The position numbers and the translations under genes were made by a program. From contig OZ244779.1 in NCBI GenBank assembly GCA_965219575.1, positions 1,260,769 through 1,324,768 of the forward strand: a stretch of DNA of 64,000 bases. Direction: 5' to 3'. The stretch comes from Candidatus Oxydemutatoraceae bacterium. Its GTDB lineage: Bacteria > Pseudomonadota > Gammaproteobacteria > Poriferisulfidales > Oxydemutatoraceae. The notes under the pieces were generated by a model. That model was given only the letters and a program-made list of their open reading frames with translations, was not told where the DNA came from and did not search any database. This document shows, one piece after another, positions 38,501 through 53,184 of this stretch (position 1 is its first letter; every line of letters begins with the position of its first letter).

Positions 38501-41500
38501 CGGTGAATAAGGCTATAGCCATCGGCGCGATGTCTAAGGTAGGCGGTTTGGTTGCCGTCAACGATGCGGTGGTCGGCGATAGTTACTGGGATATAGAAGT
38601 GAGTGGTGTCGTATCGAGTGCCGGCGGCACTTCCGCAACCACGATAACACTTCAATCGTCTACGCCGACTTCGCCGATAAACAGTGTTTATAGAAATTGG
38701 GATGCCGATGTATGGGAGTTTTCGGATGCGGGTCGCTATCCTACACTGAAAGCCTTAGACCATGCGTCACTGCTTGCTCCCGATGGAAAGAGTTTGTTAC
38801 AAAGCCTGACCCTATCGGACAATGTGCGACTATTCCCGTCCTTCCATCCGCTGATTTTTGACTACGATCTCATTGCCGAGTCGGGACAGATAGCCGAAGT
38901 GCGATTGAATACCACATCGACACGGGCAGCTACGACGATCGATATCGCTTGTAGTACCGGTTTGGTGTGTTCGTCGGGTATCCCGATGTCGTTTGTATTG
39001 AACGGTAGTGATACACCGGAAATTACCATAACCACGAATAATTCCGATGCCGGCGTGTTGTCGTATAACTTCTCGGTGCGTTACGGCGAACCGAATATCA
39101 AGCGAGTGACGGCAACGACTACAACAGTAATATCGTTGCCGTTAGCGGTAGCCGAAGGTGAGCGTGTTCGTTTGATAGCTTCGTATGATTTCGGTTTGAG
39201 TGCGGATTTGTATCACTATAGATGGCGGCAATCGACAGGTGATGCCTTAAGATTCAACGATATGCAATCGCCGGTTGATACACAGAGTGCCGTATTGGAT
39301 TTTACGGTACCCGGCAATGTAGTGTCTCAGCAAGACGATCGCCGTGTCGTACGGTTGATCTTGGAAATCGTTGTCAACGAAGCCGTGTATCTAAGCAAGG
39401 TACTACCGTTGATAATTTCCAAACGAGATAACGACGCAGCCAGTCGTATTCGCGTGCTTAAAGATGACGATAAACTGCACACTTATACCGTTAAATTTGA
39501 AAGAGCGGACGGTAGCGAGTTTGTAGATCGCGACGGTGGCTTTACCGAAACCTTTATACAATGGCAGCGTCGTCGTAGCGAAGCGGAGAGTTGGATAGAC
39601 TTAGCGTCTACGCCTACCTATACTATTCCGAACGAGGGAAATTATCAATATCGTGCACTCGCTCTGTATGAGGACAATCAAGGTTATCGCGGACAATTTG
39701 AATCTGAGGTCATAGACTATTCGGACATAGACGACGATGGCGATGGTTTGATAGAGATTCGTTATTTGGAAGAATTGGATGCGATACGCTATCGGTTGGA
39801 CGGTAGCGGTTATAAAGCGACCGCAAGTGTGGATAAGATCACTACAGGTTGCCCGTTGGTCAACGGTATAGAGAAATGCCGAGGCTATGAGTTGATGAAT
39901 GACTTGGATTTTAACGACAATGAGAGCTATCGTGCGCTTGATCCGTCGCTACTCAAGAATAGCTGGACGGTGAGCGATTTCACCGACGCAAGCGATTTGG
40001 GTTGGCAGCCTATAGGTGGGTTTAATGCCGTATTCAACGGTAACGGTTATACGATATCCAATATGCAAATAAATCGTAGCGTCGGCAATACAAACAGTAT
40101 AGGTCTATTTTCCCAAATAGGAGCAGTCGGAAAAGTTAAGAACTTGGGGCTTGTAGATCCGACAATCAAAGGTTTAGTCGGTATTAAAAATGTCGGCGGT
40201 ATCGCCGGTGCCATACAACGCGGCGGTGTCATCATCAATAGCCATGTGGTCGGCGATGTCGGCGCGGGAAACACCGATAAAATAATAACAGGTGATGTCG
40301 GATTCGCCGGCGGTAGGGGATTCATAGGGGGACTGGTCGGCTGGAATAGAGGTTTTATACTCAATAGTTATGCAAAGATCAACGTGGTTGCCGAAGACTC
40401 CGGAACGCTTGAAAACAAGCGTGTCGGAGTAGGCGGTTTGGTCGGTAGGAACATAGACGGTGGCAAGGTGTATAACAGCTATGCGACCGGTGAGGTGAAA
40501 GGCCCTTGTGTCGTCGGTGGTTTGGTGGGCAATCAATTTTCCGCCAACTCGGATAGTTTATTGACTCGAAGCGAAATCAAAAACAGCTATGCGACCGGTA
40601 ATGTAGAGACCGGGTTCGGGACGTGCGTAAACTCAAACAACAAATTTGCCGGTGGTTTAGTCGGTTTTAATAATAATTCAAGGGTTGAAAATAGTTATAC
40701 GCTGGGTGAAGTTCTCGGTGACGGTACACGCGGCGGTTTGGTTGCCGGAAAGTTTCCCGTCGGCAATACCTCTATTGCAAACCCGATCAATAGCTATTGG
40801 AACTATGAACAGAATTGTCATTTTGCTGTTTCGTTTGGTTTCGTATTAGGAGTGCAATGTTTCGGAATAACGGGAGGTACCAAGAATGTAAGAATACCGA
40901 ACAACCTTCGAAGTCCTATTGCTCCGAATACTATGTTTAATTCATGTGTTGAGAGTTATGCCGGTGGCTTAGATCCCGAAGATGTATGTACGACCTATGT
41001 GGGTTGGAATACTGCCGATTGGGATTTCGGTACTACAAAACAATATCCGGCACTCAAATACGGAGTCGGATTGGATAGAAATGCCCCTGGTTGCGACACC
41101 GATCCCAAGACGGCATTGCCGAGTTGTAATGCTTTACTGCCCGGTCAGATTGCCGATACGGTTTTATTGAATAGCCTGAGTGTATCCGCTAATTCAAGCG
41201 CTGTGCGGCTGATCCCGAGCTTCATGCCGAGTAGATTTAACTACGAAGCAATCATCGTAGCCGAAACGGTACCGGCACTTATAAAAGTTGCCACCGGTGT
41301 CGAAGAAGATACCGCAATAACGATTCGTAAAGACGGTGGTGCGCCTTTGATTAAACAATCGGACGGCACCGTGCAGATTAGTACGAACGATTCGTTCAAT
41401 CTCGGTATTAAAACCACAAGCGGAGATGAGAGAGCGGCGAACTATCGAATACAAGTACATTTAAGTTATTTGCCTCAACCGAAAATACTCCAAGTAATCA

Positions 41501-44319
41501 ACGCGAGTACTCCCACCGAATTAATCAAAGAGAATATCCTTAGCTTAAGCGAAGGGGATGTCGTCCGCTTCGATGCCTCAAGGAGTTTCGGACCGAACAA
41601 TTCGCGGTTGGATTACCGGTGGAGTCAAGTATCGGGGAAACCCTTACTGTCGGGAATAAGAACCGCATCTACCGGAGAGTTGATGATACCTGTGGATTTA
41701 TTTGCCGAAGACGAGGACGATAGCACGGTGATCCTAAAACTAGAACTGAGCGAGAGCAATAATCCGGCATCTGCGCTAAGCATAGAAATACCGTTATCGG
41801 TGCGCAAGGCAAACAACGGAAATGCCGAAAGTGGTGTGAAATGGATAAATAGCGATACGCTTTCGGCAGGCGATCTGTCGGACGATATAGACGGAGATCC
41901 ACTGATTGATGTAGCCTATCTATGGTCGTCGGAACAAAACGGTAGATTTGTCGCTATACCCGGTGCGACTCGAAAAAGCTATACGCCTCCCGAAAATGCT
42001 CGCAACGCACAATACAGAGTCTCTATAAGCTACACCGATGCACAAGGTTACCGAACCACCGCTCACTACGACGCACCGCAATTTATAACGATTGCCAACT
42101 TCGTCGATAAAGACAGCGACGGTTTGATAGAGATCGAGACACTCGAGGCACTCGATGCGATTCGTTATCAGACGGACGGTAGCGGTTACCGTGCAAGTTC
42201 TACGACGATGATGATTACTACAGGTTGTCCTTTAGTCAACGGTGTAGAGAAATGCCGGGGCTACGAATTAGTCAAGGATTTGGATTTTCTAGACGATGCC
42301 GGCTATAGTTCAACCGCCAATAAAGTAGCTTGGACAACCGGCGCAGGTTGGCAACCTATCGGTATTGTCGCTAACAATGACTGTAGTGATGCGGCTAGCG
42401 ACTGTTTCGCCGCTATTTTGGAAGGCAACGGATATAGCATTTCCAATTTGCGGATCAATAGAGACACCACCGATGAAATAGGTTTGTTTGCCGGAAACAC
42501 CGGCACCATTCGCAATCTCGGATTATCGGAAATAGAAGTAACAGGCAATTCTAGGGTCGGTGGCCTCGTCGGTCGCAACGAAGGTGGACTAATGAATATC
42601 TATGTAGTCGAAGGCAAGGTTGAAGGTCAAAATAACGTTATCGGTCTGTTAACCGGCATCGGCGTGTCGGGTTCGTCGATCATCAATAGTTATGTAATCG
42701 GCACTGTGATAGGTTCTCGTTTTGTCGGTGGTATCTGTGGCATAAACTATGGTGACATGATCGGTAGTTATGCGGTTGCCGATGTTTCGGCACAGCGGGA
42801 GGCAGGTGGTCTGGTCGGCGAGAATCAAGGCACTATCGGCAACAGCTATACATCAGGCTCGGTTAGTATCAATGAGAAAGAACGAGCTGTAGGAGGTCTA
42901 GTCGGTGTATTATGGTCGGGCGGTCGTATTGATAACAGTTACTCGACTGCCGAGGTAAAAACAGACTTTGTTGCAACAGCCAATAGCGATGCGCAGTATG
43001 TAGGTGGTTTAATCGGCAACCGAGAATCACCCAGCCTACAAGTCAATAATAGTTATTGGGATACCGATGCGAGTGGGCGGACGAACTCTTCGGGAGGCGG
43101 TATCGCCAAGACCAAGGCTGAATTGCAAATGCCGACTGTAGCGGGAGCAAGGGTCAATGCTATCTATTACAACTGGGATGCCGACAGATGGGATTTCGGC
43201 ACTTCCGAGGCGTATCCGGCACTCAAATACTACGATAACACTTGTGTCACTGCCACACCGTCGCCGGATTGCGGTAGATTATTGCTCCATCAACGTATCG
43301 GCTTGAGAGATATAAAGCTGGAGCAGAATGTGGAGGGAGAACGACTGTATCTTTCTCCCGATTTTGACTCTACGGTTACAGCTTATACGGTATCGGTGCA
43401 TGCCGATGCGAGCGAATTGGGAATTATCCCGCTAGCGGCTAATCCCGATGCGGATATCGTAGCCGACGGCAAGGTCTTATCGGCAAACCACAGCGGCTAT
43501 ACCATTGCGATAGATACTTCCGAGCCTACCTCTACGGTTATCGAAGTTTCGGCGAGCAATTCGATGGGAACGGAGGATCCCATTGCATATAGATTGACGG
43601 TAAACAATCGTTTGCCCGAGATAGATATTAACGCGCCCGCTTCGATAAGCGAAGGCGAAACCCTTAGATTAAATGCCTCTATAGCAGATGCCGACGGAGA
43701 CGAGTTGCGGTACAGTCTGAGTGCGATTACCGACTTATTGCCGGATTTAGAGGAGACCACCGGCACCGCGGTAGGCGGTGCCGATTCGGTTTATGCGCTT
43801 AACATACCGAGTGATCTGCTCGGTGAGAGGCAAAGCACCGATAATATAAAGATCATGCTGACAGTTGAGGATGGTATGAGTGTTATGAACAAAACGGTGC
43901 GGATATCGATAATCAAAGAAAATAACGGTGTGATATCGGTTGCTACCCCTACGCTGAATGGTTTCACATATACCGTCGGAAATATAGATCTATCGTCGGA
44001 TACGGACGGAATAAATCCTGTTCCCGAAATAGCTTACCGATGGCAAAAGGAACTGTTGGGCAGCTGGTCGGATATCAATGGTGCCACCGCTCAAAGTTAT
44101 ACCGTCGAGGGTATTATAGGTGACCGCTACCGTGTATTGGTCGATTATACCGATAAGCAGGGTTATAGACATCAAAGCGTTGCATCTTCGGCAGTATCGG
44201 TACCGCAGCAATTTACTTATGATGTTCAGAAATCTAGAAGTGCCGTAAGAACTGTAATGGATCGGGCACCGGGTATTTTCATACATATCAGAGTACTCCC
44301 CGAAGGCCTTCTACGGTAA
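26569..44319 (+). CDS. Giant secreted GLUG-repeat / cadherin-like protein, paralog 3 (5916 aa, ten modules)
   Basis: Signal peptide MGGSTKFLLLLIAVSWVSVSA-Q; colinear with paralog 2 throughout; ends IHIRVLPEGLLR*. Confidence 0.88.
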   Translation: MGGSTKFLLLLIAVSWVSVSAQDVFECDYAADVDQDKDGLIEICDVDALDAIRYQLDGSGYRESFDTVKVTAGCPRSGCNGYELRKDLDFDADDSYRDLGNKAAWTSGLGWLPIGTRLNFFTARFEGNGHTIANLYIDRPSDYVGLFKATMRRAKISDLVLSQINIKGNSYVGGLAGHNAGSVVYVGVENGRLIGMGNTVGGLFGANAGTILNGDVILRRVEGNGHSLGGLVGHNEGHITHSVADTGLFGVSQVGGLVGLNFGGVLTNSRSDGTANGSDYIGGLVGLNRARISASYAEGKVISDGSYSGGLVGANNRGGRIADSRASGAVSGNLYAGGLVGWNKDSEITNSFAVSRVDGNSDVGGLVGWNESGRISNTYANGFVTGVDRVGGLVGSNRGIVSDSFANGQVVASGMHAGGLIGWNHAYQTRDAVAVRVTHSYWDSEAAEISLSAGGSPRTTQQLRSPTAPGLPGETFERWDVADWDFGTDEQYPILRHSEGSNEGHLLPGQYIMLSGLLVLDGLTLSPAFDPQTFDYRVYLSDDSLRQIRFSPTIANSTQTISVLKDEKTGLPSVINGETVPINLNGVPEPTLVTIARHYRIWVLRQTGLQATISSDRSDYRVSEGQNIVLNVLTSEPDVRRVRYRWSQVSPMQPDLLKDLNTRQAELNINIPDDFVAQDNDESPVVLQVEVRVGGTTVVRNTTITVVRTNNGSINTLAAPTYREGTLAVADISEADLSVDPDGGVDINSFRYRWQYKLPSATRWHDIKDATQTRYEIPAVLSAIDNIGYRVGLDYRDNQGHRHRIVSEPVSVVQVVEDDGFADIYYLEDLNAIRNQLDGRYELARDLDFNSDASYRDPINKAKWTVADYGNDADTGWLPVGTIVNRFTGIFDGNGHTIFNLQINRDAADDQGLFGALGSAAIVKNIGLLNVKIEGTQHIGGMVGINAGTIVGSYAVGEFSANSLVGGIVGVNHGKIINSYAGSVISRRSSVPSHLGGLVGTNEGIVINSHATVQILERRSNNVGGLIGWNAVDARVINSYAGGDVGGDVHVGGLTGINRGSITNSYADGEVSGNGSLGGLVGANQIAAAMITNSYAVGRVQGSGSGLVATNEGVIRASYWNIETGGSQGRYGSGRTMQQMQLPTAAIGIYEAWDDADWDFGNSAQYPILKYAPGPDGDACGVPGLPQCGELISPHLRHGLHSLATAGGIVLSPEFDTEVQNRSGIYIGTLSSTDNTIRLIPTTIEPTAHIGFYIGDDEIAYDTIRSGETSKAISLKAIGMTRIRIEVQGTVTVDYTLYIDYRNIAEFRSINYLEDLRAIHRRPQGSYKLARDLDFADSGSYLDPLNRISWTVEDYNDAGDVGWVPIGSESKPFAGRFDGNGHTISGLQINRDDADNQSLLGVTASSAVISNIGLLNVKIEGGAKVAGLVGTNRGQVGYSYVGGSIESKSIEGVGGGLVANNDGGDIIGSRALSQVSGTQFIGGLVGDNNGRIINSHADSIVMPGSGGSRFGGLVGRNRSLIANSYASGEILFGGTSSIKGGLVGWNDLQARIVNGYAAVGIVGAIAGGLVGYNLGAIENSYAIGELSGGNSTRGSLVGNNAGGTIVVSYWNSDTIASGGNNGIGQTSAQLRSATPTVPMNSIYKDWDTDDWDFGTSEQYPILKYTTATESIFECDSSGMPQCGNLVSPGLRYGLRDLTAADDVTFSPPLDVDRLNQSGVYSATVFGEHPSIRLIPVAIESTARISFIGDKHEILDSHDTSSPISLKNEVIKKVVVEVKGTKTVRYTLYLSYMHHRVIDEDGDGLVDIDYLEDLDAVRHQLDGSGYRADAGSVKITSGCPSAGCRGYELLRDLDFNDAAGYRNADANMGRWTGAGAWQPIGSDRATFTATFKGNNKTIANLSVRAGGGLFTAIGSDSRVAYIDGIGLSAVDIKGDVVAGIAASCVQCTISNSYVIGNIQGTAAVAGLLNTISATNGGRASISNSYFIGNLAVNGPSAVGGGLVGDVDSDLTITDSYVVGRITAEHDDGFIGGLVGVRTSSALDIVNSYASIAATKADVSQGLFGGNRNPSARLAPTVHTSYLDKDISQAEVTLGKLKSTVALQSQAPTTPTDSIYKDWDTDDWDFGTAKQYPAIKYNLQAHATDGDAHCGTADIRRRPDACRTLLRHQGSLLQDLKLSEGLGLSSPFAHTSFDYGISVNADRSTIRMLPTAFNEIATIEVIKDDNAIGETDSGKWTVPIPLNDSGDTVFSLVVKDGKRHSYRYRFVVNRLGIVAQSIDEDGDGFIDISNATHLDAVRHRLDGSAYQQSETVDALYCSNGCSGYELTADIDLAGVEWQPIGSLNEPFSGVFRGNGHTISNLTIKTGNATGMGLFEVIGAGGRVENVGLVNVNIAGQNNVGTIAGYNFGTIINSHADGNLVVVNSYVGGLVGRNNGGTIVNSYANVDVHANNIYAGGLVGWNEANSFIVNSYAIGTVRANNGLAGGLVGSSPKGAKIHNSYAAGDVRVQTDGNLAGGLIASGGLIVSSYYKAGAVISRANSLIGIDKTAVELKAGVPSDDIYTEWDRADWHFGNTEQYPALLYAPANADDTACRQPSLEQLSACNGGLFGALSEHDRAVVCRSHLPRLPEQTPYCGALLPEQRAGLVRLEFSKNASLIPAFNPEIYDYDLVVDSGITFRTTPTAYYGSDTITVNIDDLGSSTSSGRSSSITLNDDLDSIVLRVQSATPGMPTRYTIKVLQDIAVVDGLITIDYLEDLNLMRHSLEQVSATLKDCPIDTEDGVRRCKGYRLVGDLDFKNPTSYRAGNLNPIWTTGSGWQPIGNRSNPFSGLFSGNAHTLSNLRIHDIPVGDIGLFGVVADDARIENIGLLNADIDVDNSRHSLFDIGGLVGENYGEIINSHVVGGRVRGDFFVGGLVGRNEGGTIVNSHANVSVNGRTNITGGLVGSNAIDGKIHNSYASGAVVGNDFVGGLVGISTGDIRNSYASGAVVGNGFVGGLVGELSQQGIEVSNSYAIGKVTGRRLVGGLIGSITNAGIRDAVNASYWDIDTSNITGSVAGIGKTTAELRTPAIGNGIYSNWDGNDWYSESSSQYPALRYTGATDVVARPACRETGDDGAELPICGDLLPDQSIGLSNLARSNRTGQVLLLRPDFNSGIYDYELILKSDAREFSIIPYTFNPDAVITLNDDSETNRHRELRSGKGTTLTIGDIDDLLLTLAVEDRLISGTTQTTLYSIKVSKHSFVTVNDIDEDDDGLIEVRSADDLNAIRYQLDGSGYKADRDDTKITVGCPTTPTVGCKGYELAASIDLSGFDWHPIGVIDATTLDCNDTQSRCFAAIFDGNRALGYEISGLSIATSQRDNVGLFAALADAAQVKNLNLADVEVGGHFGVGSLTAYNAGAIDNSSADGTVAGEHAVGGLVAYNVGRISDSYAYGAVSGDRIVGGLVARNESSGVIANSYSLNRVSGNTGIGGLVALNLGAIANTYASGVVEGVTLIGGLVGDNGGSVRNSYATADIVCTGVPACTSYTVATGGLIGRNTGGIAVNSYWDTGVSNIRISAGGVGKTTLQLQSGSGQSSDASRAYYRWRSSDWHFGDVYQYPILKYTGGSENTLAGLQSYGLASLTIAEVVTLSPNFNTTKLHYRVGVDLDANIKRLHLTPNALDEDATIRIFSDNGFDETIKTGTGSSAIVLHSTATTVIGVEVSGDRRVRYRFEVNYFSSGTKRDVDTDRDGLIEILTLEDLDAMRNALDGKSLRHQNADGVSIKNARGCPMTGCRGYELLRDLDFDNPAHYRTGSVNTAWTSGASWQPIGTQRHPFTATFKGNGYTISNLKVNRPDSDGGLFGVIDGSESNVVIESLGLSDVDIVGGAHVGGLVGTNRAGDIRKSYVIGSVTTRGYGTSEMVGGLVGRNIAGSITESYSETQVKANLAAELSVALAGGLVALNDDRSRIENSYAIGSVVGRDSVGGLVALNRNSSEIVDSYAVNKAIAIGAMSKVGGLVAVNDAVVGDSYWDIEVSGVVSSAGGTSATTITLQSSTPTSPINSVYRNWDADVWEFSDAGRYPTLKALDHASLLAPDGKSLLQSLTLSDNVRLFPSFHPLIFDYDLIAESGQIAEVRLNTTSTRAATTIDIACSTGLVCSSGIPMSFVLNGSDTPEITITTNNSDAGVLSYNFSVRYGEPNIKRVTATTTTVISLPLAVAEGERVRLIASYDFGLSADLYHYRWRQSTGDALRFNDMQSPVDTQSAVLDFTVPGNVVSQQDDRRVVRLILEIVVNEAVYLSKVLPLIISKRDNDAASRIRVLKDDDKLHTYTVKFERADGSEFVDRDGGFTETFIQWQRRRSEAESWIDLASTPTYTIPNEGNYQYRALALYEDNQGYRGQFESEVIDYSDIDDDGDGLIEIRYLEELDAIRYRLDGSGYKATASVDKITTGCPLVNGIEKCRGYELMNDLDFNDNESYRALDPSLLKNSWTVSDFTDASDLGWQPIGGFNAVFNGNGYTISNMQINRSVGNTNSIGLFSQIGAVGKVKNLGLVDPTIKGLVGIKNVGGIAGAIQRGGVIINSHVVGDVGAGNTDKIITGDVGFAGGRGFIGGLVGWNRGFILNSYAKINVVAEDSGTLENKRVGVGGLVGRNIDGGKVYNSYATGEVKGPCVVGGLVGNQFSANSDSLLTRSEIKNSYATGNVETGFGTCVNSNNKFAGGLVGFNNNSRVENSYTLGEVLGDGTRGGLVAGKFPVGNTSIANPINSYWNYEQNCHFAVSFGFVLGVQCFGITGGTKNVRIPNNLRSPIAPNTMFNSCVESYAGGLDPEDVCTTYVGWNTADWDFGTTKQYPALKYGVGLDRNAPGCDTDPKTALPSCNALLPGQIADTVLLNSLSVSANSSAVRLIPSFMPSRFNYEAIIVAETVPALIKVATGVEEDTAITIRKDGGAPLIKQSDGTVQISTNDSFNLGIKTTSGDERAANYRIQVHLSYLPQPKILQVINASTPTELIKENILSLSEGDVVRFDASRSFGPNNSRLDYRWSQVSGKPLLSGIRTASTGELMIPVDLFAEDEDDSTVILKLELSESNNPASALSIEIPLSVRKANNGNAESGVKWINSDTLSAGDLSDDIDGDPLIDVAYLWSSEQNGRFVAIPGATRKSYTPPENARNAQYRVSISYTDAQGYRTTAHYDAPQFITIANFVDKDSDGLIEIETLEALDAIRYQTDGSGYRASSTTMMITTGCPLVNGVEKCRGYELVKDLDFLDDAGYSSTANKVAWTTGAGWQPIGIVANNDCSDAASDCFAAILEGNGYSISNLRINRDTTDEIGLFAGNTGTIRNLGLSEIEVTGNSRVGGLVGRNEGGLMNIYVVEGKVEGQNNVIGLLTGIGVSGSSIINSYVIGTVIGSRFVGGICGINYGDMIGSYAVADVSAQREAGGLVGENQGTIGNSYTSGSVSINEKERAVGGLVGVLWSGGRIDNSYSTAEVKTDFVATANSDAQYVGGLIGNRESPSLQVNNSYWDTDASGRTNSSGGGIAKTKAELQMPTVAGARVNAIYYNWDADRWDFGTSEAYPALKYYDNTCVTATPSPDCGRLLLHQRIGLRDIKLEQNVEGERLYLSPDFDSTVTAYTVSVHADASELGIIPLAANPDADIVADGKVLSANHSGYTIAIDTSEPTSTVIEVSASNSMGTEDPIAYRLTVNNRLPEIDINAPASISEGETLRLNASIADADGDELRYSLSAITDLLPDLEETTGTAVGGADSVYALNIPSDLLGERQSTDNIKIMLTVEDGMSVMNKTVRISIIKENNGVISVATPTLNGFTYTVGNIDLSSDTDGINPVPEIAYRWQKELLGSWSDINGATAQSYTVEGIIGDRYRVLVDYTDKQGYRHQSVASSAVSVPQQFTYDVQKSRSAVRTVMDRAPGIFIHIRVLPEGLLR

Positions 44320-45797: not shown

Positions 45798-45962
45798 AGA
45801 GACGAGATGAGCCTTTTAACTATTTAGGTGGATAAATGGATAATTGTGCAGACATTCTTGGGGCTGTTGAAGAAGTGAGGACATCGTTCAAACCCAATCG
45901 CTGTGCGCCGTGAATACTTGCAAACCACCTGTAGGGGCGGACTAACATGATGCCTTATTAAA

Positions 45963-45968
45963 AATCAA
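45963..45968 (-). promoter_or_regulatory. -35 box (TTGATT) of the IS110 circle-junction promoter
   Basis: In the circular form it lies 17 nt from TATATT at 47262-47257. Confidence 0.75.
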
Positions 45969-46009
45969 GCCATTTTATTCATTTTTTATCTCCTTTTTTG
46001 AGTATCGAT

Positions 46010-46996
46010 TCAGGATGCAGATGCGCAACAATAATTCGGGTCAAACGGCTTCCTGTATCTGAGTATTCCGTAAATAATACGTGCCAGCTTATGGGCGCAA
46101 GCAACAATAATCTGCTTTTTAGTTAACTCCGGACGCCGCCGACTTAATTGGTCGGCAAAGGCACGGATGATTGGGTTATGAACCCGTGCCGAGAGTGCCG
46201 CCATAAACAGCAGGGTGCGCAGTTCGGCATCGCCCATTTTAGAGATATGCGCCTTCGCCTCGTAGTTGCCGGACTGCCGGCGCCTTGGGTTGAGACCGAC
46301 ATAGACTGCGAATTGCTCTGCGTTATCAAATGTCTTATCATTGAAAACAGCACACAGGGCAATCGCCGTCTGAGTGCCGATGCCGGTAATGGAACACAGC
46401 AACTGCTCAAGCTCTGCGAGTTGCTCGTCTTGAGCGATAATTCGCTCCATTTCGGCATCCTGCTTAGCAATCTGCTTGTCAAAGTATCTCAGGTTCTCAG
46501 CTGCTCGTTTTTTTTGCCTTGCATCGCATAAGGTTTTCATACAATTACTTAACCCGGTATGATCTTTGACTAATTGCCTGCGCACTTTTCGTGCATCTCT
46601 CAAGGCGAGTGCAGTCGGTGACGGCATTTGCCAATCTTTACCGTCAACAGCGAATGCGAACAGTGCGATGAGCCGCGCATCATCGCGATCGGTTTTATTG
46701 TGCATACCAAGCGATTTACGGAAGCTGGCAACCTGCGCCGGTTTGACAATCCTAATCGGATGTTGCGCCAGATAGCCGGCTTTGCACAGGGCGAACTCAA
46801 AACCGCCGGTGGCTTCAACACAGATGCGACAGTGCGGTGCGCAGTGTTTGCTAGCCCAAGCTAACAGTTGCTTAATGCCTTTGGCATCATTGCTAAATTG
46901 TGCCTCGGCAAAACTATTATCGGTGAATAATAGAGCGGCCTCTAAAGTGTCTTTAGAGACATCCACGCCGATTATGGCAGGGTGTTTGTTTTCCAT
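46010..46996 (-). CDS. IS110-family DEDD recombinase (bridge recombinase)
   Basis: RuvC-like DEDD motifs GVDVSK, CVEATG, KTDRDDA; Tnp domain SITGIG..TA, GLNP..RQSG, ISKMG...LR..L, ACAHKLARIIYG. Start placed at the second Met (46996) because GGAGGA lies just upstream of it. Confidence 0.95.
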   Translation of the reverse strand: MENKHPAIIGVDVSKDTLEAALLFTDNSFAEAQFSNDAKGIKQLLAWASKHCAPHCRICVEATGGFEFALCKAGYLAQHPIRIVKPAQVASFRKSLGMHNKTDRDDARLIALFAFAVDGKDWQMPSPTALALRDARKVRRQLVKDHTGLSNCMKTLCDARQKKRAAENLRYFDKQIAKQDAEMERIIAQDEQLAELEQLLCSITGIGTQTAIALCAVFNDKTFDNAEQFAVYVGLNPRRRQSGNYEAKAHISKMGDAELRTLLFMAALSARVHNPIIRAFADQLSRRRPELTKKQIIVACAHKLARIIYGILRYRKPFDPNYCCASAS

Positions 46997-47054
46997 AATA
47001 ATATCCTCCATTATGGTTGTTCAGTGAATAAAATACTCGGTAGCCAGTTCAGGA

Positions 47055-47250
47055 AAGTATGACTACGCCGCCCACACAGGTAAATACGAGATCTAAAGTC
47101 TCAAGCTGCCTTCCGAGCTCTATAGTCATAGCGCCGGAGGAGTGCTTTTCATGCTAACAGGCTTTAATGCCTCGTCCGTCCTGCGGCGTGTCTCCTCCGA
47201 CTTCCTAGGTACTGCAACTACCTAAGCATTTATCTTATATAAATAAGCTA
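47055..47250 (-). ncRNA. Predicted bridge RNA (5' hairpin, target-binding loop, donor-binding loop)
   Basis: Three stems: 47206-47224; CGGAGGAG/CTCCTCCG (47135-47199) with inner AGGC/GCCT hairpin; TATGACTA/TAGTCATA (47058-47130) with inner GAGA/TCTC hairpin. The loop guides match the target and donor sequences. Ends are approximate. Confidence 0.85.
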
Positions 47251-47256
47251 GGGTTT

Positions 47257-47262
47257 AATATA
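47257..47262 (-). promoter_or_regulatory. -10 box (TATATT) of the IS110 circle-junction promoter
   Basis: Lies two bases inside the element end, next to the core. Confidence 0.75.
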
Positions 47263-47523
47263 CCTGTCCGCCCGTAACGCGTTGGTCGGCACGATTTATA
47301 CATTCATTCATTCAATTTATGGAAACCAAAACCAAATGGCGCAAAGCGGTTAGGTTTGTGCATGACGTTAGTTAAGGGCAGACATCAGAGTTGCCGATTG
47401 ACCTACCGGCTCAATCGGCGGCTTTATACTGCCCCTACGGCTTGGTGGTTATTATAAATTCACGGCGCAAGCGGTTACGGTTGCAAGCTGACGATACTTT
47501 TTCAACAGTCCCACATCGTAAAT

Positions 47524-47574: not shown

Positions 47575-50500
47575 ATGCTTAAAAATATAATAATGCGAGG
47601 TTTATTTACCTCTCGATTTATTCGGCAAGCAGTCGTTTTGTCCGTCTTGTGTTGCTTGCCGGTTATCGGTGTCGCACAATCCACTTTGGTATTCGGCACG
47701 CCGTCGATCGCACCTGCCGAACTTCGTTGGGGGGGGGATTATACACTATCGTTTCTTGCGATTAGCCAAGAACAACCCACGCAAGCGACGACGCTGACGC
47801 TCCATATAACGGAGAATGGTATCAGCAGGCGCATAGACGAAACGCCCTATGGTCTGGCAAACGAATTTTTGCCGTTGCAGAGACAGGTTTCCATACCCGC
47901 TTTAGGTATCAGAACTTCTGCTATGATCAATGCACGAGGGACGGCAGGCATCGGTCTTGTCGGAACGGTTGCTTTTAGATATTGCGACGATACGCAAACA
48001 CTCTGTACGGAGGCTTTCAATGTCGATTATCTAAGCGACACGCCGAGCCGTGATATAAACGGGAATTACCGGCTGTCCATCACAACATCGACCGTGGTAT
48101 CGGGGTCGTGTGCTGCGGTGCGTGAGCGAGAACAGCGAATTGAGATGAGCCAAGCAGGCAACACGGCAAGTTATCGTTTCACCGACGATTTCGGATTGTC
48201 GGCGATGCTTCAGGCGGCGATAAGTTCCAACACTTATGTATTCACGAGGCAATACGGCACTGCGCCGGCATTTAACGGCACGCGCACACTGATCGTACGA
48301 GCCGAGTTTAGCGACAACGATAACGGCAACGGGCGCGCGTATTGGTCATACCAACGCGCCGACGGCAACTTGTGTCGTGGCACTTACGAGGTGCAATATA
48401 GCAAGCGATCGGGGGCGATCAAAGTACGGGCGCGGGTATTTTTAGAAGGTGCGCTGAGTGGCGGTATCTCTAATATAGTTTCAGGTGCTACACCGCCTAC
48501 GCTGCCCGAGCGAGTGCAAGACACGGTGCTGTCCGAGTCGGGTGCATTATACGCATTGAGAGACGACCACACGCTATGGACGGTTAATCCGTCGGGTTCA
48601 AGACAACAACTAGTGTCCACCAGTTTTAAGGTCGGCGAGGTGGATATTCATGATTTGGTCTTTGTCGGGCGTAGCGACAGCACCGACAGGCTGTATATCG
48701 TCGATAGTTTTCTGCGTGCGGTGATTGCGGTTGATTTGACCGACGGCAGTCGCAATGTGGTTTCCGGGTGCGACATCGCCAACCGCTGTCCGTCGGGGCA
48801 ATACCGGGTGGGCGACGGTGTGCCGTTAACGCAACCGACCGATGCGGTGTTGGACGAGGCTGGCAATCGCCTGATTATCACCGATACTTATTTGAGCGCA
48901 CTTGTCGCAGTGGATTTAACGAACGGCAACCGCAGTGTGGTTTCGGGATGCACGGCAAACGATTTATGTCCTGTTGAGGAACGCAACATCGGAGACGGCA
49001 CCGTCATGCTACACCCGCAAGCGTTGAGCATCAATAGTTCTGTGACCCGTATCGTCGTCGTAGACGACCGGCTGGACGCACTGCTCGTGGTGGATGCGAC
49101 GACCGGTGAGAGAGTCATCGTTTCGGGCTGTTTGGTGCGAGCGATATGCGTGATACCGGAAAGGGGTTCCGGCCCCTCGTTCGATCAACCGATTGCAGTG
49201 GTGCTGGACGACGATGCCGGTTTGGCGTATGTTGCGGACAATGGTTTGAGGGCTGTAGTCGAGGTTGACCTTGATAACGGCAACCGCACCGTTCTATTGA
49301 GTCCGGTCACCGTCCGAGCACCGTATCATCTGATCTTAGACGCAGACACGGAGCGGGTGCTGGTCTACAGTGATGCCGACGGTTCGCTGACTGCGATTCC
49401 CCAAGCGGCGCGCACCCCGACGCAACTAACGACCTATATCAGAACCGGAAGCACCGCAACCTCGCCGCCTGCGCCGCCGCGCGATTTGATTCTTGAGGCA
49501 CGCGACGATGTCATTGCGCTCAGCTGGCGACCGGTAAATCGGGCAACCTCGTATAAGATTTATTGGAACAGCTTTGCCGATATTAATGCCGCTCAAGCGG
49601 ATCAAGTCATCTCGGATATCTACGGCACCGGCTATGTACACACCGGGCTAATCCGAGGGCAACTTTATTACTACGCGGTGAGTGCAGTCAATGAGCAGGG
49701 TGAGAGTGCCGTCAGCCCGGCGGTGAGCATAATGTTGCCGCTACCAACCGGCAACGACGAAACACCCCCGACTGCGCCGGTCATCGTGTCTGCGTATGCT
49801 TCTTCCACGACCGCCATTGCACTGGATTGGATGGCATCGACCGACGACCGCAGTGCTGCCGAGCAGATCGTCTACGAAGTGCATGTCTCCGAAAGCACCG
49901 CAACCACGATCGGCAAAGACACCGAACGGGTGATGGTGCAGGGCATCTATAGTGCCAATGTCGATGACCTCAAAACCAGCCAGACCTACTATGTGCATGT
50001 TGCCGCACTGGACGAGGCAGGCAACCGTAGCCTCTCGGAGATGATATCGATACGCACGATGTCGATGATGCCGAAATTGTCCACCCAAAACGAGGTGGTG
50101 CTGATACGGATTGATACGGAACTGAACGCCGACGGCACGATTATCGTAGACCGTCGCGACGATCTGAAAGTGGGACAAGTTGCGATCATGATGGGACAAG
50201 ACGACAGCTATCTGAGAAGGATTACCCGTATTGAAATCGTCGGTAGCGACCAAATGCTACTCTATACCGAACAGGCATCGCTGGCCGATGTATTCTCAGA
50301 CCTCAGCTTGAACATGAATGTTAGACTGGAGGATGTGGACGACGATGCGGCGATTGCGGCAGCGAAATCGGCACAAGTGCGTGCCGAGCAACGAGGCGAG
50401 CCGGCACCGCCGGCGGACACCAAACTCAGGCGGTTCTCCCCGGCACTGCGCTCGCCGATGTCGGTTCCGCCGTCCGAAGTGTGGCCGTATCAACCGATCT

Positions 50501-52833
50501 TCGAGGGCGGCGAGCAAATCCGTGAGATGCACTGGCCGGATAGCGGCTTTAGACTACGCCAGTCCGAACCGCTCAGCCAAACCGACGATCTACTCGATAG
50601 CATCAAAGATGCGGTAGGGCTACGCTCGGAGCAACAGCCGTCCGAACCGGATATTCCTGCGACTTATGAACATGAAAATATCCGCATTATCACAACAGGC
50701 TTTTTCGGTCTATTCGGCGACATCATAAAAGTTTGGTATCCGCCTTATGTGACAGCCGAAGTCAACAAGGTTGCCTCGTTTGATGTTTATGTTGAATATC
50801 CCGAGAACTTTAGCGAACGGTGTTCGGTGACCATAGACGACATCACCCAAAGAGGTACGAGCCGGGGAAGGCAGGGTGCTTCGGTGAGAGCTAAACCGGC
50901 AAGTGCCGATGCAAGGATTGTGGAACATCGTGTGCGCTGGCGAACTTACGAACGGCATAAGAGTCGCGATGAATGGAAAATGGAGCTTTTGTTCGGCTAT
51001 CCATGCGAGCGAAGTATTACGGTGCCGATTGCTGTTTCTTCCGATAAACCTGTGAATCTTTCCTTCCAAGGAGAGGTGACGATACCGATACCCTCAATAC
51101 CCGATGGCGAACAGCGATTCCATGGCGATATGGATCTGGATTTTGACCCTGAAATTAAAATCTCTTATGATCGAGAATCATCCAAACACGGAACTCTCGA
51201 GGTCGTTGTCGGTGGCGATGTAGATCTAGACATACTACTAGAAATAATTACTGCATCCGGATATACGCTAGATGGAGAAAAAGAAATAGGTAAAAAGAAA
51301 AGTTTCTATCGGCTCATATTTGTACCTACTTTGGGAATACCGATACCGGTTGTGGTTAACGGTGAGCTTGGCTTTAAGGTAAGAGGTGAGGCTGGAGTAT
51401 CGGCCGAGATGAACATTGCCCAGACATTTCAATCAACCTATAAATTAAGGGCAGGTTTTAGATACAAAAACGGTAGATTTGTGCCTATCAGCAGTGCCGA
51501 CAGTAGCAGCGAATACGAAATCACGGTTAAGACAGCAGCCGGAATGATGGTTAAGTTTTCGCTGATTCCTCAACTGGACTTGGGGCTTTACGCCTCCATT
51601 CTTACGAATGTTCAATTAATTCCTTATGTGCAGGGCAATGGCGATGTTGAGGGAATATTCGAGCGAGGGAGTGGTGTTTCTTTAGAGGCAGCTATTGACA
51701 GCAGTGATTATCGCTTCACGAGGTTGGATTCAAGTTTAGGAATTGCGTCAAACATAAATGTGGATCTTGAACCTATTCTTATCCCCTTCGCCGAATCGTA
51801 TGAATTATTTGACTTGCGTCGTGCGATTACATCGCTACCGGAAATGCAGCTGAGACAAGGTAGAAATGACGAAAATACCTATACCGTGCGGGTTACACCG
51901 GGGCAATGGTTTGGTAGGGAGAGGAACAAAATCCAACAGGGCATGTGGTCGGTTGTTCCACCCGAAGGTGCGCCTAGATTGATAAGAGTTGACGAAAACA
52001 CCGTCCGAGTGGATGACTCACAAGAGATAGAAGAAGACAAATACAAGCTACGCTATACCGGACACAGTCGATACGGTAGAGTAATTCAGCAATATCAGGA
52101 AATACCAATCGCTGTGCAACTACTGGGTGTATGCGATAGAACACCACAGGTGCGGGATGAAATCAAACAACGGGTTGACAAAGACGACTGTGCCGAGATT
52201 AGTGCGGAAGACCTCGCTACGATTACAAGAATGTTTCTTGATGAAGAGTCGATATTTCCTTCATTATCTTCTTTATTGACCGGTGATTTTAGCGGTTTAA
52301 CTAGTCTGGAGTGGTTGGATTTGGGCGACAACGAGCTAAGCACGCTCCCCGAGGGTATCTTTAGCGGTTTAACTAGTCTGGGGCGGTTGGATTTGGATGG
52401 CAACGAGCTAAGTACGCTCCCCGAGGGTATCTTTAGCGGTTTAACTAGGCTGTATGAGTTGAGTTTGGATAACAACAAGCTAAGTACGCTCCCCGAGGGT
52501 ATCTTTAGCGGTTTAACTAGGCTGGAGTGGTTGGGTTTGGGCGACAATAATCTAAGTACGCTCCCCGAGGATATTTTTAGCGGTTTAACTAGGCTGTATG
52601 AGTTGAGGTTGGATAACAACAAGCTAAGTACGCTGCCCGAGGATATCTTTAGCGGTTTAACTAGTCTGGAGTATTTGTATTTGTATGGTAACGAGCTAAG
52701 CACGCTTCCCGAGGATATCTTTAGTGGTTTAACTAGTCTGCAGTGGTTGGTTTTGAGGAACAACAATTTGGGTAACGATTACTGTACGGCTTTGAGAAAT
52801 CAGCTATCACTTAGTCGCTTTAGCTGTGATTAA
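47575..52833 (+). CDS. Secreted multidomain protein: beta-propeller-like (NHL-type) repeats, two fibronectin type III domains, unknown middle region, C-terminal leucine-rich repeats
   Basis: Signal-like N-terminus (RQAVVLSVLCCLPVIGVA-Q; start may be the Met at 47593). Repeats L.I.D..L.A..AVDL..G.R.VVSGC; FN3 motifs IALSW.PV..A.SY.IYW...GL..G..YYYAVSAVN..GES and ALDW.ASTDD...YY..VAALDEAGN; LRR cap VCDRTPQVRD..C and 24-aa LRRs. Confidence 0.85.
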   Translation: MLKNIIMRGLFTSRFIRQAVVLSVLCCLPVIGVAQSTLVFGTPSIAPAELRWGGDYTLSFLAISQEQPTQATTLTLHITENGISRRIDETPYGLANEFLPLQRQVSIPALGIRTSAMINARGTAGIGLVGTVAFRYCDDTQTLCTEAFNVDYLSDTPSRDINGNYRLSITTSTVVSGSCAAVREREQRIEMSQAGNTASYRFTDDFGLSAMLQAAISSNTYVFTRQYGTAPAFNGTRTLIVRAEFSDNDNGNGRAYWSYQRADGNLCRGTYEVQYSKRSGAIKVRARVFLEGALSGGISNIVSGATPPTLPERVQDTVLSESGALYALRDDHTLWTVNPSGSRQQLVSTSFKVGEVDIHDLVFVGRSDSTDRLYIVDSFLRAVIAVDLTDGSRNVVSGCDIANRCPSGQYRVGDGVPLTQPTDAVLDEAGNRLIITDTYLSALVAVDLTNGNRSVVSGCTANDLCPVEERNIGDGTVMLHPQALSINSSVTRIVVVDDRLDALLVVDATTGERVIVSGCLVRAICVIPERGSGPSFDQPIAVVLDDDAGLAYVADNGLRAVVEVDLDNGNRTVLLSPVTVRAPYHLILDADTERVLVYSDADGSLTAIPQAARTPTQLTTYIRTGSTATSPPAPPRDLILEARDDVIALSWRPVNRATSYKIYWNSFADINAAQADQVISDIYGTGYVHTGLIRGQLYYYAVSAVNEQGESAVSPAVSIMLPLPTGNDETPPTAPVIVSAYASSTTAIALDWMASTDDRSAAEQIVYEVHVSESTATTIGKDTERVMVQGIYSANVDDLKTSQTYYVHVAALDEAGNRSLSEMISIRTMSMMPKLSTQNEVVLIRIDTELNADGTIIVDRRDDLKVGQVAIMMGQDDSYLRRITRIEIVGSDQMLLYTEQASLADVFSDLSLNMNVRLEDVDDDAAIAAAKSAQVRAEQRGEPAPPADTKLRRFSPALRSPMSVPPSEVWPYQPIFEGGEQIREMHWPDSGFRLRQSEPLSQTDDLLDSIKDAVGLRSEQQPSEPDIPATYEHENIRIITTGFFGLFGDIIKVWYPPYVTAEVNKVASFDVYVEYPENFSERCSVTIDDITQRGTSRGRQGASVRAKPASADARIVEHRVRWRTYERHKSRDEWKMELLFGYPCERSITVPIAVSSDKPVNLSFQGEVTIPIPSIPDGEQRFHGDMDLDFDPEIKISYDRESSKHGTLEVVVGGDVDLDILLEIITASGYTLDGEKEIGKKKSFYRLIFVPTLGIPIPVVVNGELGFKVRGEAGVSAEMNIAQTFQSTYKLRAGFRYKNGRFVPISSADSSSEYEITVKTAAGMMVKFSLIPQLDLGLYASILTNVQLIPYVQGNGDVEGIFERGSGVSLEAAIDSSDYRFTRLDSSLGIASNINVDLEPILIPFAESYELFDLRRAITSLPEMQLRQGRNDENTYTVRVTPGQWFGRERNKIQQGMWSVVPPEGAPRLIRVDENTVRVDDSQEIEEDKYKLRYTGHSRYGRVIQQYQEIPIAVQLLGVCDRTPQVRDEIKQRVDKDDCAEISAEDLATITRMFLDEESIFPSLSSLLTGDFSGLTSLEWLDLGDNELSTLPEGIFSGLTSLGRLDLDGNELSTLPEGIFSGLTRLYELSLDNNKLSTLPEGIFSGLTRLEWLGLGDNNLSTLPEDIFSGLTRLYELRLDNNKLSTLPEDIFSGLTSLEYLYLYGNELSTLPEDIFSGLTSLQWLVLRNNNLGNDYCTALRNQLSLSRFSCD
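52288..52770 (+). repeat. Seven 72-bp tandem repeats encoding 24-aa LRRs
   Basis: TTTAG[C/T]GGTTTAACTAG at 52288, 52360, 52432, 52504, 52576, 52648 and 52720. Confidence 0.95.
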
Positions 52834-52975: not shown

Positions 52976-53184
52976 GGGGCTGTTGAAAAAGTGCGGCATC
53001 GTACGAATCCAATCACTTGCGCCATTTGGTTTTGGTTTCCATAAATTGGATGGATGAATGTATAAATCGTGTAAGCACAACGCGTTACGGGCGGACATGC
53101 TAGTCCGCCCCTATGGGTGGTTTGCAAATATTCACGGTGCAAGCGGTTGGATTTTTGCGCTAACAATACTTTTTCAACAATCGC
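52976..53184. mobile_element. MITE copy 4 (shorter, single REP, degenerate right TIR)
   Basis: GGGGCTGTTGAAAAAG at 52976 and TTTTTCAACA at 53170-53179. Internal sequence is shared with copy 1; REP GGGCGGACATGCTAGTCCGCCCCTAT at 53089-53114. Confidence 0.75.

Follow-up and report, generated by a model that had tools for sequence, protein, structure and literature searches.

A CA-core IS110-group insertion sequence with a predicted bridge RNA in the REP hairpins of an Oxydemutatoraceae bacterium

The window analyzed here is a stretch of 64,000 nucleotides (nt) of DNA from Candidatus Oxydemutatoraceae bacterium (assembly GCA_965219575.1, contig OZ244779.1, positions 1,260,769 to 1,324,768 of the forward strand). 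An insertion sequence of the IS110 group lies at 47264-45948 of the window, and it is very probably intact and mobile through RNA-guided recombination, as IS621 is. The anatomy of the element, the homology of its recombinase, the matches of the guides in a predicted bridge RNA and the covariation of these guides with target and donor DNA carry this reading. The element interrupts a repetitive extragenic palindrome (REP), and its two junctions share the core dinucleotide CA. An earlier note on this DNA, made from the letters alone, had proposed an IS621-type bridge RNA in the left end. Recombinase homology, layout, guides around CA, handshake bases and compensatory changes of guide and DNA all agree with that proposal. 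The features of the element and of its targets are collected in Table 1.

Table 1. Coordinates of the element, the predicted bridge RNA, its guides and the REP targets in the window
Feature	Position	Strand	Basis or reading
Whole IS110-group insertion sequence	45948..47264	minus	Alignment of 7 genomic copies with differing flanks, and vacant REP site
Left end, non-coding, 268 nt	47264-46997	minus	Copy alignment
Right end, 60 nt	46009-45950	minus	Copy alignment
CA core, left copy (target-left/donor-right junction)	47265..47266	minus	Sequence reading and copy alignment
CA core, right copy (donor-left/target-right junction)	45948..45949	minus	Sequence reading and copy alignment
Recombinase gene, 328 amino acids	46010..46996	minus	Pfam, PDB and NCBIfam matches
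Predicted bridge RNA, ~195 nt	47055..47250	minus	RNAfold, consensus fold of 10 distinct variants, covariance model
5' stem-loop (predicted)	47204..47226	minus	RNAfold and consensus fold
Target-binding loop module (predicted): 10-bp outer stem, inner hairpin 47172-47159	47133..47201	minus	RNAfold
Donor-binding loop module (predicted): 9-bp and 5-bp outer stems, inner hairpin 47103-47087	47058..47130	minus	RNAfold and consensus fold
Left target guide GGACGGACG	47173..47181	minus	Same sense as target top strand GGGCGGA-CA
Right target guide GUUAGCAUG	47150..47158	minus	Complementary to top strand CA-TGCTA
Target-loop handshake guide AA	47148..47149	minus	First A pairs donor position 7 (T), not target position 7 (A)
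Left donor guide AAGGCAGCU	47104..47112	minus	Read against right end AAGGCAT-CA
Right donor guide AUUUACCUG	47077..47085	minus	8/9 against left-end start CA-GGTATAT
Donor-loop handshake guide UG	47075..47076	minus	U pairs target position 7 (A), not donor position 7 (T)
Putative -10 box TATATT	47257..47262	minus	Read from left end
Putative -35 box TTGATT (TTGACT in the G003 copies)	45963..45968	minus	Read from right end
Disrupted REP hairpin, left arm GGGCGGAC	47266..47273	minus	Flank reading and genome hairpin search
Disrupted REP hairpin, right arm GTCCGCCC, then CTAC	45935..45942	minus	Flank reading and genome hairpin search
Vacant REP hairpin GGGCGGAC-ATGCTA-GTCCGCCC, single CA	53089..53110	plus	Perfect unoccupied target for the window RNA

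Boundaries and copies of the element

The element is 1,317 bp long when one copy of the CA core is counted in. On the minus strand, the left junction reads GGGCGGA-CA(47266-47265)-GGTATAT, and the right junction reads AAGGCAT, ending at 45950, followed by CA(45949-45948) and TGTTAGTCCGCCC. The two junctions overlap in exactly the dinucleotide CA. The earlier note had rebuilt the target from these flanks as GGGCGGA-CA-TGTTA and the donor junction as AAGGCAT-CA-GGTATAT, and both junctions on the minus strand bear this out. The genome is a single contig of 2.37 Mb with seven copies of the element, of which four are 97-100% identical and three are 81-82% identical. Similarity among the seven copies ends exactly between GGGCGGA-CA and GGTATAT on the left and between AAGGCAT-CA and TGCTAGTCCGCCC on the right, and the outer flanks differ. 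Because the copy alignment fixes these boundaries and the vacant site holds a single CA, the insertion is placed in the loop of an 8-bp hairpin with CA as the crossover overlap. The reading frames are open in all seven copies, and the presence of four copies with 97-100% identity in different flanks indicates recent mobility.

Copies of the element family were found in 4 of 61 related genomes, all belonging to one genus. A class-wide search (E up to 1e-70) found it in none of the 399 other scored genomes, and a metagenome scan with the recombinase protein alignment revealed no relative. The comparative set obtained from the four genomes of the genus consists of 27 left ends, 25 of them with both junctions recovered, and includes six guide types. 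CA is present at both junctions in all 25 of these loci. Solo bridge RNA genes were also considered, and none of the 57 genome matches covers the left end alone.

The window copy lacks 10 bp of the right end (at 45998) that are present in copies c2-c4. The 10-bp right-end form is carried by contigs from three of the four sequencing runs compared.

Recombinase gene

The recombinase gene is preceded by a ribosome-binding site, GGAGGA, at 47009-47004. Its product contains the Pfam domains PF01548 (76.2 bits, cut-off 29) and PF02371 (80.1 bits, cut-off 21.3), and it matches the NCBIfam model NF033542, "IS110 family RNA-guided transposase", with 223.6 bits (cut-off 140). It also aligns over its full length to the solved structures of IS621 (E 4.3e-44) and ISCro4 (E 4.9e-41). 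The residues D12, E61, D103 and D106 (DEDD) and S242 are invariant in the five aligned recombinase variants, and these DEDD/Ser motifs align with the corresponding motifs of the IS621 chain. The catalytic residues of IS621 are given as D11, E60, D102, D105 and S241 (PMC11208158).

Guides and handshake bases

On the minus strand, where all guides and their matches were read, the left target guide GGACGGACG forms seven Watson-Crick pairs with GGGCGGA-CA, with an A.C mismatch at position 3 and a G.T pair at the second core base. The right target guide GUUAGCAUG pairs with CA-TGCTA at seven of seven Watson-Crick positions and has one G.T wobble with its own site, CA-TGTTA. When random genomic 16-mers were compared with the observed match on both strands, none of 200,000 equalled the target loop and none of 200,000 equalled the donor loop. 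The guide matches therefore cannot be chance.

The guide readings of the earlier note were reproduced in full. It had matched the left target guide GGACGGAC (47181-47174) to GGGCGGAC at 7/8, the left donor guide AAGGCAGC (47112-47105) to AAGGCATC at 7/8 and the right donor guide ATTTACCTG (47085-47077) to the reverse complement of CAGGTATAT at 8/9. TAGCATG (47156-47150), its reading of the right target guide, is exactly reverse-complementary to CATGCTA at 53096-53102, within the vacant hairpin that starts at 53089, and it meets the occupied site CATGTTA with one G:T wobble. The note had further expected the guides to lie in loops beside the inner hairpins and to covary with their targets in homologs; RNAfold of 47250-47055 places them there, and the covariation is seen across the six guide types.

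Natural covariation of guides with target and donor

The right target guide changes with the loop in which the element sits. UAGCAUG is found in CATGCTA (four copies) or CATGTTA (one copy), UUGCAUG in CATGCAA (four copies), and UAACAUG in CATGTTA (10 copies) or CATGCTA (two copies, with one mismatch each). UGGUAUG is found in CATATCA, CATGCCA and CATGCAA, with one mismatch in CATGCAA. All seven positions of this guide are paired in 22 of the 25 loci. The left target guide also follows the REP stem, since its base at position 4, either C or A, is the same as in the stem, and position 7 is G with G in locus L037.

The donor side behaves in the same way. The right donor guide carries ACCUG where the element starts with CAGG (17 loci) and AUCUG where it starts with CAGA (10 loci), and the pairing there is Watson-Crick in all 27. 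The left donor guide is perfect at 8/8 in one variant (AAGGCAUC). The target-loop handshake base pairs position 7 of the non-cognate DNA and not of the cognate DNA in 25 of 25 loci. The donor-loop handshake follows the same rule at position 7 in 24 of 25 loci, with 13 Watson-Crick and 11 G.U pairs. Position 6 of the handshake pairs less regularly than position 7. This natural covariation of guide, target and donor is the strongest evidence that the predicted RNA is a bridge RNA.

Fold of the predicted bridge RNA

In the RNAfold structure of 47250-47055, a small hairpin and a 5' stem-loop are accompanied by two long stem-loops, both of which enclose an inner hairpin with guides on either side. 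The 5' end of the predicted RNA was placed from the putative -10 box, and its 3' end is approximate. The minimum free energy structure contains a few weak pairs within the loops, and the consensus fold retains only three per loop. Among 10 distinct RNAs, the five named helices are paired in 99.2% of cells, compared with 34-52% when the 3' partners are slid. In total, 29 of the 33 stem pairs never vary among these RNAs, and the 5' hairpin alone shows a compensatory change, which is one A-U to G-C in L037. Because the stems lack covariation, the structure rests on folding energy, conserved pairing and likeness to IS621. Variable columns make up 17 of the 40 guide and handshake columns versus 12 of the 98 stem columns, a distribution that fits fixed scaffolds around variable guides. 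A covariance model was built from the 10 variants, and it finds the window copy by construction. An RNA of the IS1111 type in the right end was ruled out, as the right end is only 60 nt long.

REP targets and host repeats

The genome that contains the window (G000) has 296 hairpins of the form GGGCGGAC-N6-GTCCGCCC when one substitution per arm is allowed, and 206 of these are exact. Their loops are ATGTTA (59), CTGTGT (52), ATGCAA (45), ATGCTA (38), ATGCCA (37), ATATAA (32) and ATACAA (17). The hairpin has the traits of a REP, since it is a short GC-rich palindrome with many intergenic copies and has GTAG ahead of it on the opposite strand. A GTAG end is a criterion for REPs. The Y1/RAYT transposase (PF01797) was not found in the G000 genome, despite the 296 hairpins.

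Guide variants and REP types are distributed together among the genomes. Exact GGGCGGAC REPs number 206, 24, 0, 25 and 95 in G000-G004, and GGGAGGGC REPs number 0, 156, 0, 0 and 131 in the same order. The GGACGGAC guide variants occur in G000 and G003, the genomes with the GGGCGGAC REP type only. G001 and G004 are the only genomes with the GAGAGGAUU guide variant, which resembles GGGAGGGC. G002, which is 95% complete, lacks both REP types and the element.

In G000, the REP hairpin sits at the center of a longer repeat unit of ~100 bp that occurs more than 40 times, among other places at 53020-53150 of the window and in the flanks of the element. REPs also form tandem arrays with dozens of hairpins in a row, at G001:C1:642861-643540 (~84 bp spacing) and at G004:C2:362579-380423 (~134-214 bp). 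In the window, open reading frames of 5,916 amino acids (26569-44319, plus strand) and 1,752 amino acids (47575-52833, plus strand) flank the REP-rich spacer of the element.

Evidence against the bridge RNA and alternative explanations

Several results weigh against the bridge RNA and against its proposed activity, and the first group concerns the fold. The z-score of the fold energy is modest (-2.19), and 4 of 200 shuffled sequences fold equally well or better. None of the 33 stem pairs is changed on both sides, and 442 of 500 shuffles reach the observed covariation score in this narrow lineage. An Rfam scan of 45800-47400 (E up to 10) gave no family match, with chance-level hits to rli26 and DUF2815 only. 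When the covariance model built here was run on the left end of IS621 with filters off, it scored no better than 9.4 bits (E 0.047), out of register, and a similar match was found on the opposite strand; this comparison speaks neither for nor against the bridge RNA. The left-end structure could instead serve as a leader in the control of transposase expression and resemble the target and the ends of the element only as a by-product of captured REP sequence. The stems without compensatory change suit such a leader, and IS110 small RNAs were formerly regarded as modulators of recombinase expression, as recounted in PMC11208160. This explanation is nevertheless very improbable and fits the data poorly. 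The matches flank the core on opposite strands, arranged exactly as in IS621, they change together with target and donor in six variants, and the handshake rule is followed. A captured REP copy also leaves the donor guides unexplained.

The second group concerns the guides of the predicted bridge RNA. One mismatch of the right target guide is present in 3 of 25 insertions, and the left donor guide AAGGCAGCU pairs at 7/9, missing donor position 7 and the second core base. L037 violates the donor-loop handshake rule. In a cross-matrix of guides and sites, the mean match is 10.4/12 for own sites versus 8.75/12 for the sites of others, and the own site is best or tied best in only four of six rows. 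The guide types are related, and they therefore represent few independent events, not 27. None of the six variants has a perfect left target guide; in H, the commonest of them, this guide forms five Watson-Crick pairs and one wobble out of nine and keeps two A.C mismatches.

The weakness of the left target guide suggests dual recognition, in which the RNA would read mainly the REP loop, the right half of the target, while the protein would recognize the REP stem largely as a DNA hairpin and the left target guide would have a minor role. The target is always a perfect 8-bp hairpin, and its arms are palindromic, so the same left target guide could pair with either arm. A target stem-loop is also described as a second layer of specificity for ISPpu10 in a preprint (10.64898/2026.03.19.712850). 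That stem-loop, however, lies 5' of the target, whereas the insertion point of the window element is within the loop. The changes of the left target guide at positions 4 and 7 with the REP stem likewise argue for reading by RNA. In G004, where the two REP families have 95 and 131 copies, every listed H-type copy that has a REP as its left flank occupies the family resembled by its guide. Dual recognition is a possible refinement of the bridge RNA reading, though a rather unlikely one.

The third group concerns expression and movement. Among the listed sequencing runs that contain the element, none is on record as RNA. Contigs of X1, X2, X6 and X7 contain no circle junction and no emptied site of the window locus, and none of them joins across the element. 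The element body is seen in contigs from four studies, in which the loose ends at 45949 and 47265 belong to further copies of the REP. Rare forms such as circles are beyond the reach of contigs; therefore, nothing follows from the absent circle junction. The element could also be a silenced relic, with RNA and gene that look intact and movement in this host that was recently lost. Only seven copies occupy the 296 REP hairpins available, no circle junction was found in the contigs, and the window copy sits in a wobble site and lacks the 10 bp of the right end found in c2-c4. However, a relic does not agree well with open reading frames in seven of seven copies, with four copies of 97-100% identity in different flanks, or with guides, handshake bases and putative promoter boxes that are all intact, and rare circles would escape detection in contigs. 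A silenced relic is improbable and fits the data poorly, and an active, RNA-guided element is preferred.

Proposed mechanism

Transcription, assembly of RNA and protein, chemistry and direction of the reaction are modeled on IS621. The mechanism would begin with excision, in which the two ends join and bring a putative -35 box of the right end and a putative -10 box of the left end 17 nt apart. This spacer between TTGATT and TATATT exists only when the ends are joined; it was read directly from the sequences of both ends. In the integrated state, no sigma-70-like site was found upstream of the bridge RNA. The junction promoter would drive the bridge RNA of ~195 nt and, downstream of it, the recombinase gene. 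The loop and left arm of the REP hairpin would be read by the first large loop of the RNA, and the two sides of the joined ends, AAGGCAT-CA and CA-GGTAT, by the second. Strands would then be exchanged at the shared CA by the DEDD/serine recombinase, acting as a tetramer. After this exchange, the two bases that follow each right-hand guide may drive the reaction onward by pairing with the other DNA at its position 7.

Type C, type D and rearranged copies

Two types of copies, C and D, are found in the window genome. Type-C copies sit in ATGCTA loops in four of five cases, although this loop accounts for 13.9% of REP loops (P = 0.0016 if insertion were random), and type-D copies sit in ATGCAA loops in two of two cases (P = 0.024). 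The type-D recombinase protein is 68% identical to that of type C. It can be tentatively hypothesized, as a possibility that falls somewhat short of probable, that two co-resident bridge systems are orthogonal at both ends, with type C using TGCTA loops and a GG donor, type D using TGCAA loops and a GA donor, and the two dividing the variants of one REP family between them.

The type-D recombinase gene (copies d1-d3) ends five codons before that of type C, with NYC followed by the stop codon; the genome search registers one internal TGA here, but this is a shorter C-terminus and not a break. Copy d1 (G000:C1:1384818-1386215, locus L005/L056) is a chimera. It is exactly type C in the left end until shortly after the bridge RNA, carries the gene and right end of type D (~81% identical to type C in DNA) and sits in a type-C target loop (TGCTA). 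This hints that target choice travels with the RNA. The left end and gene may also have been exchanged after insertion. Movement of the d1 chimera in this form would mean that the RNA determines target choice and that a divergent recombinase can use the RNA of the other type.

Two H-type copies, L046 (G001) and L049 (G004), have a duplicated fragment of their own left end ahead of them, consisting of the first 75 nt and 51 nt, respectively. These fragments start at the normal REP-CA junction and end at an internal CA. These loci run from the REP left arm through CA, the left-end fragment, CA, the full element and CA to the REP right arm. Such an arrangement resembles the outcome of an off-target event at an internal CA in the left end of a resident copy, with subsequent loss of one copy.

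Significance

Bridge recombinases are under development as genome-writing tools, and those tested, IS621 and ISCro4/IS622, have CT or GT cores. More sites could become addressable with a relative that is active in nature, has a CA core and carries a long right target guide, and the window element is regarded as a candidate programmable tool, as the earlier note had suggested. The six natural guide variants, each located in the REP loop or stem that it matches, are a field example of elements that retarget by few base changes and follow the repeat families of the host. If the orthogonality of types C and D is true, these variants with their fixed CA core form a natural series of reprogrammed guides and a source of orthogonal bridge recombinases with a core other than CT. 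The known mechanism is left unchanged by the findings on the window element.

Comparison with known systems

IS621 is the main reference. In IS621-type systems, the core is included in all four guide pairings, the right donor guide of IS621 pairs discontiguously, position 7 of its left donor tolerates a mismatch, and its promoter is rebuilt across the joined ends (PMC11208160). The handshake guides are described as pairing position 7, and sometimes position 6, of the other DNA after the first strand exchange, and not their own DNA (PMC11208158). According to PMC11208160, bridge RNAs were predicted in 85.7% of IS110-group elements in 2024. As a reference check, an authentic IS621 copy from an E. 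coli record was read in the same way as the window element. The reading recovered the published target ATCAGGC-CT-AC and the AU handshake. The left target guide of IS621, AUCGGGCCU, has G opposite target position 4, which was read as the site of the published G53A substitution. Its left end folds into the same three modules as the window RNA.

The window element resembles IS621 in many respects. The recombinases align over their full length with DEDD and Ser conserved, and a long left end contains the RNA, which consists of a 5' hairpin followed by a target loop and a donor loop. In both RNAs, the top strand is matched in sense by the 5' guides and in complement by the 3' guides, every guide overlaps the 2-bp core, and a two-base handshake guide follows each right-hand guide. 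The left donor guide of the window RNA leaves donor position 7 unmatched, where IS621 tolerates a mismatch. Both elements have TAT after a variable right donor of 2 bp, a GUAUUU motif at the start of the right donor guide and a REP as target, and the putative junction promoter of the window element would be split between the two ends as in IS621. In contrast, the amino acid identity is ~33% (tblastn), the core is CA here and CT in IS621, and the right target guide is 7-9 nt long compared with 4 in wild-type IS621. The insertion point here is in the loop of an 8-bp REP hairpin, and the handshake guides are 73 nt apart compared with 85 in IS621 (positions 81 and 166, PMC11208158). No sequence-level homology between the two RNAs was detected with the covariance model built here.

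In the papers returned by a text search on IS110 and bridge RNAs, the phrase 'CA core' does not occur. The CA core is not claimed as unreported, because the supplementary tables of PMC11208160, which possibly list thousands of cores, lay outside this text search.

ISCro4/IS622 of Citrobacter rodentium has a recombinase that matches that of the window element over its full length (E 4.9e-41) and the same bridge RNA architecture, as described in 10.1101/2025.05.14.653916. It differs in its host and in its CT core, with GT also used, and it has been tried in human cells. ISPpu10 of Pseudomonas putida is likewise an IS110-group element with a bridge RNA, and it inserts only into REPs with a GC-rich stem-loop according to its preprint (10.64898/2026.03.19.712850). 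In that account, it differs from the window element by a CT duplication and by a stem-loop that lies 5' of the target and not around the insertion point. IS1111-group elements with seekRNA belong to the same recombinase family and follow the same RNA-guided logic. Their RNA is carried in a long right end and they have long subterminal inverted repeats, whereas IS110-group elements carry the RNA in a long left end and have a short right end (PMC11208160). In the window element, the RNA lies upstream of the gene, and the right end measures 60 nt. Every family feature that could be tested is present in the window element, which represents a known mechanism in a new lineage with a CA core.

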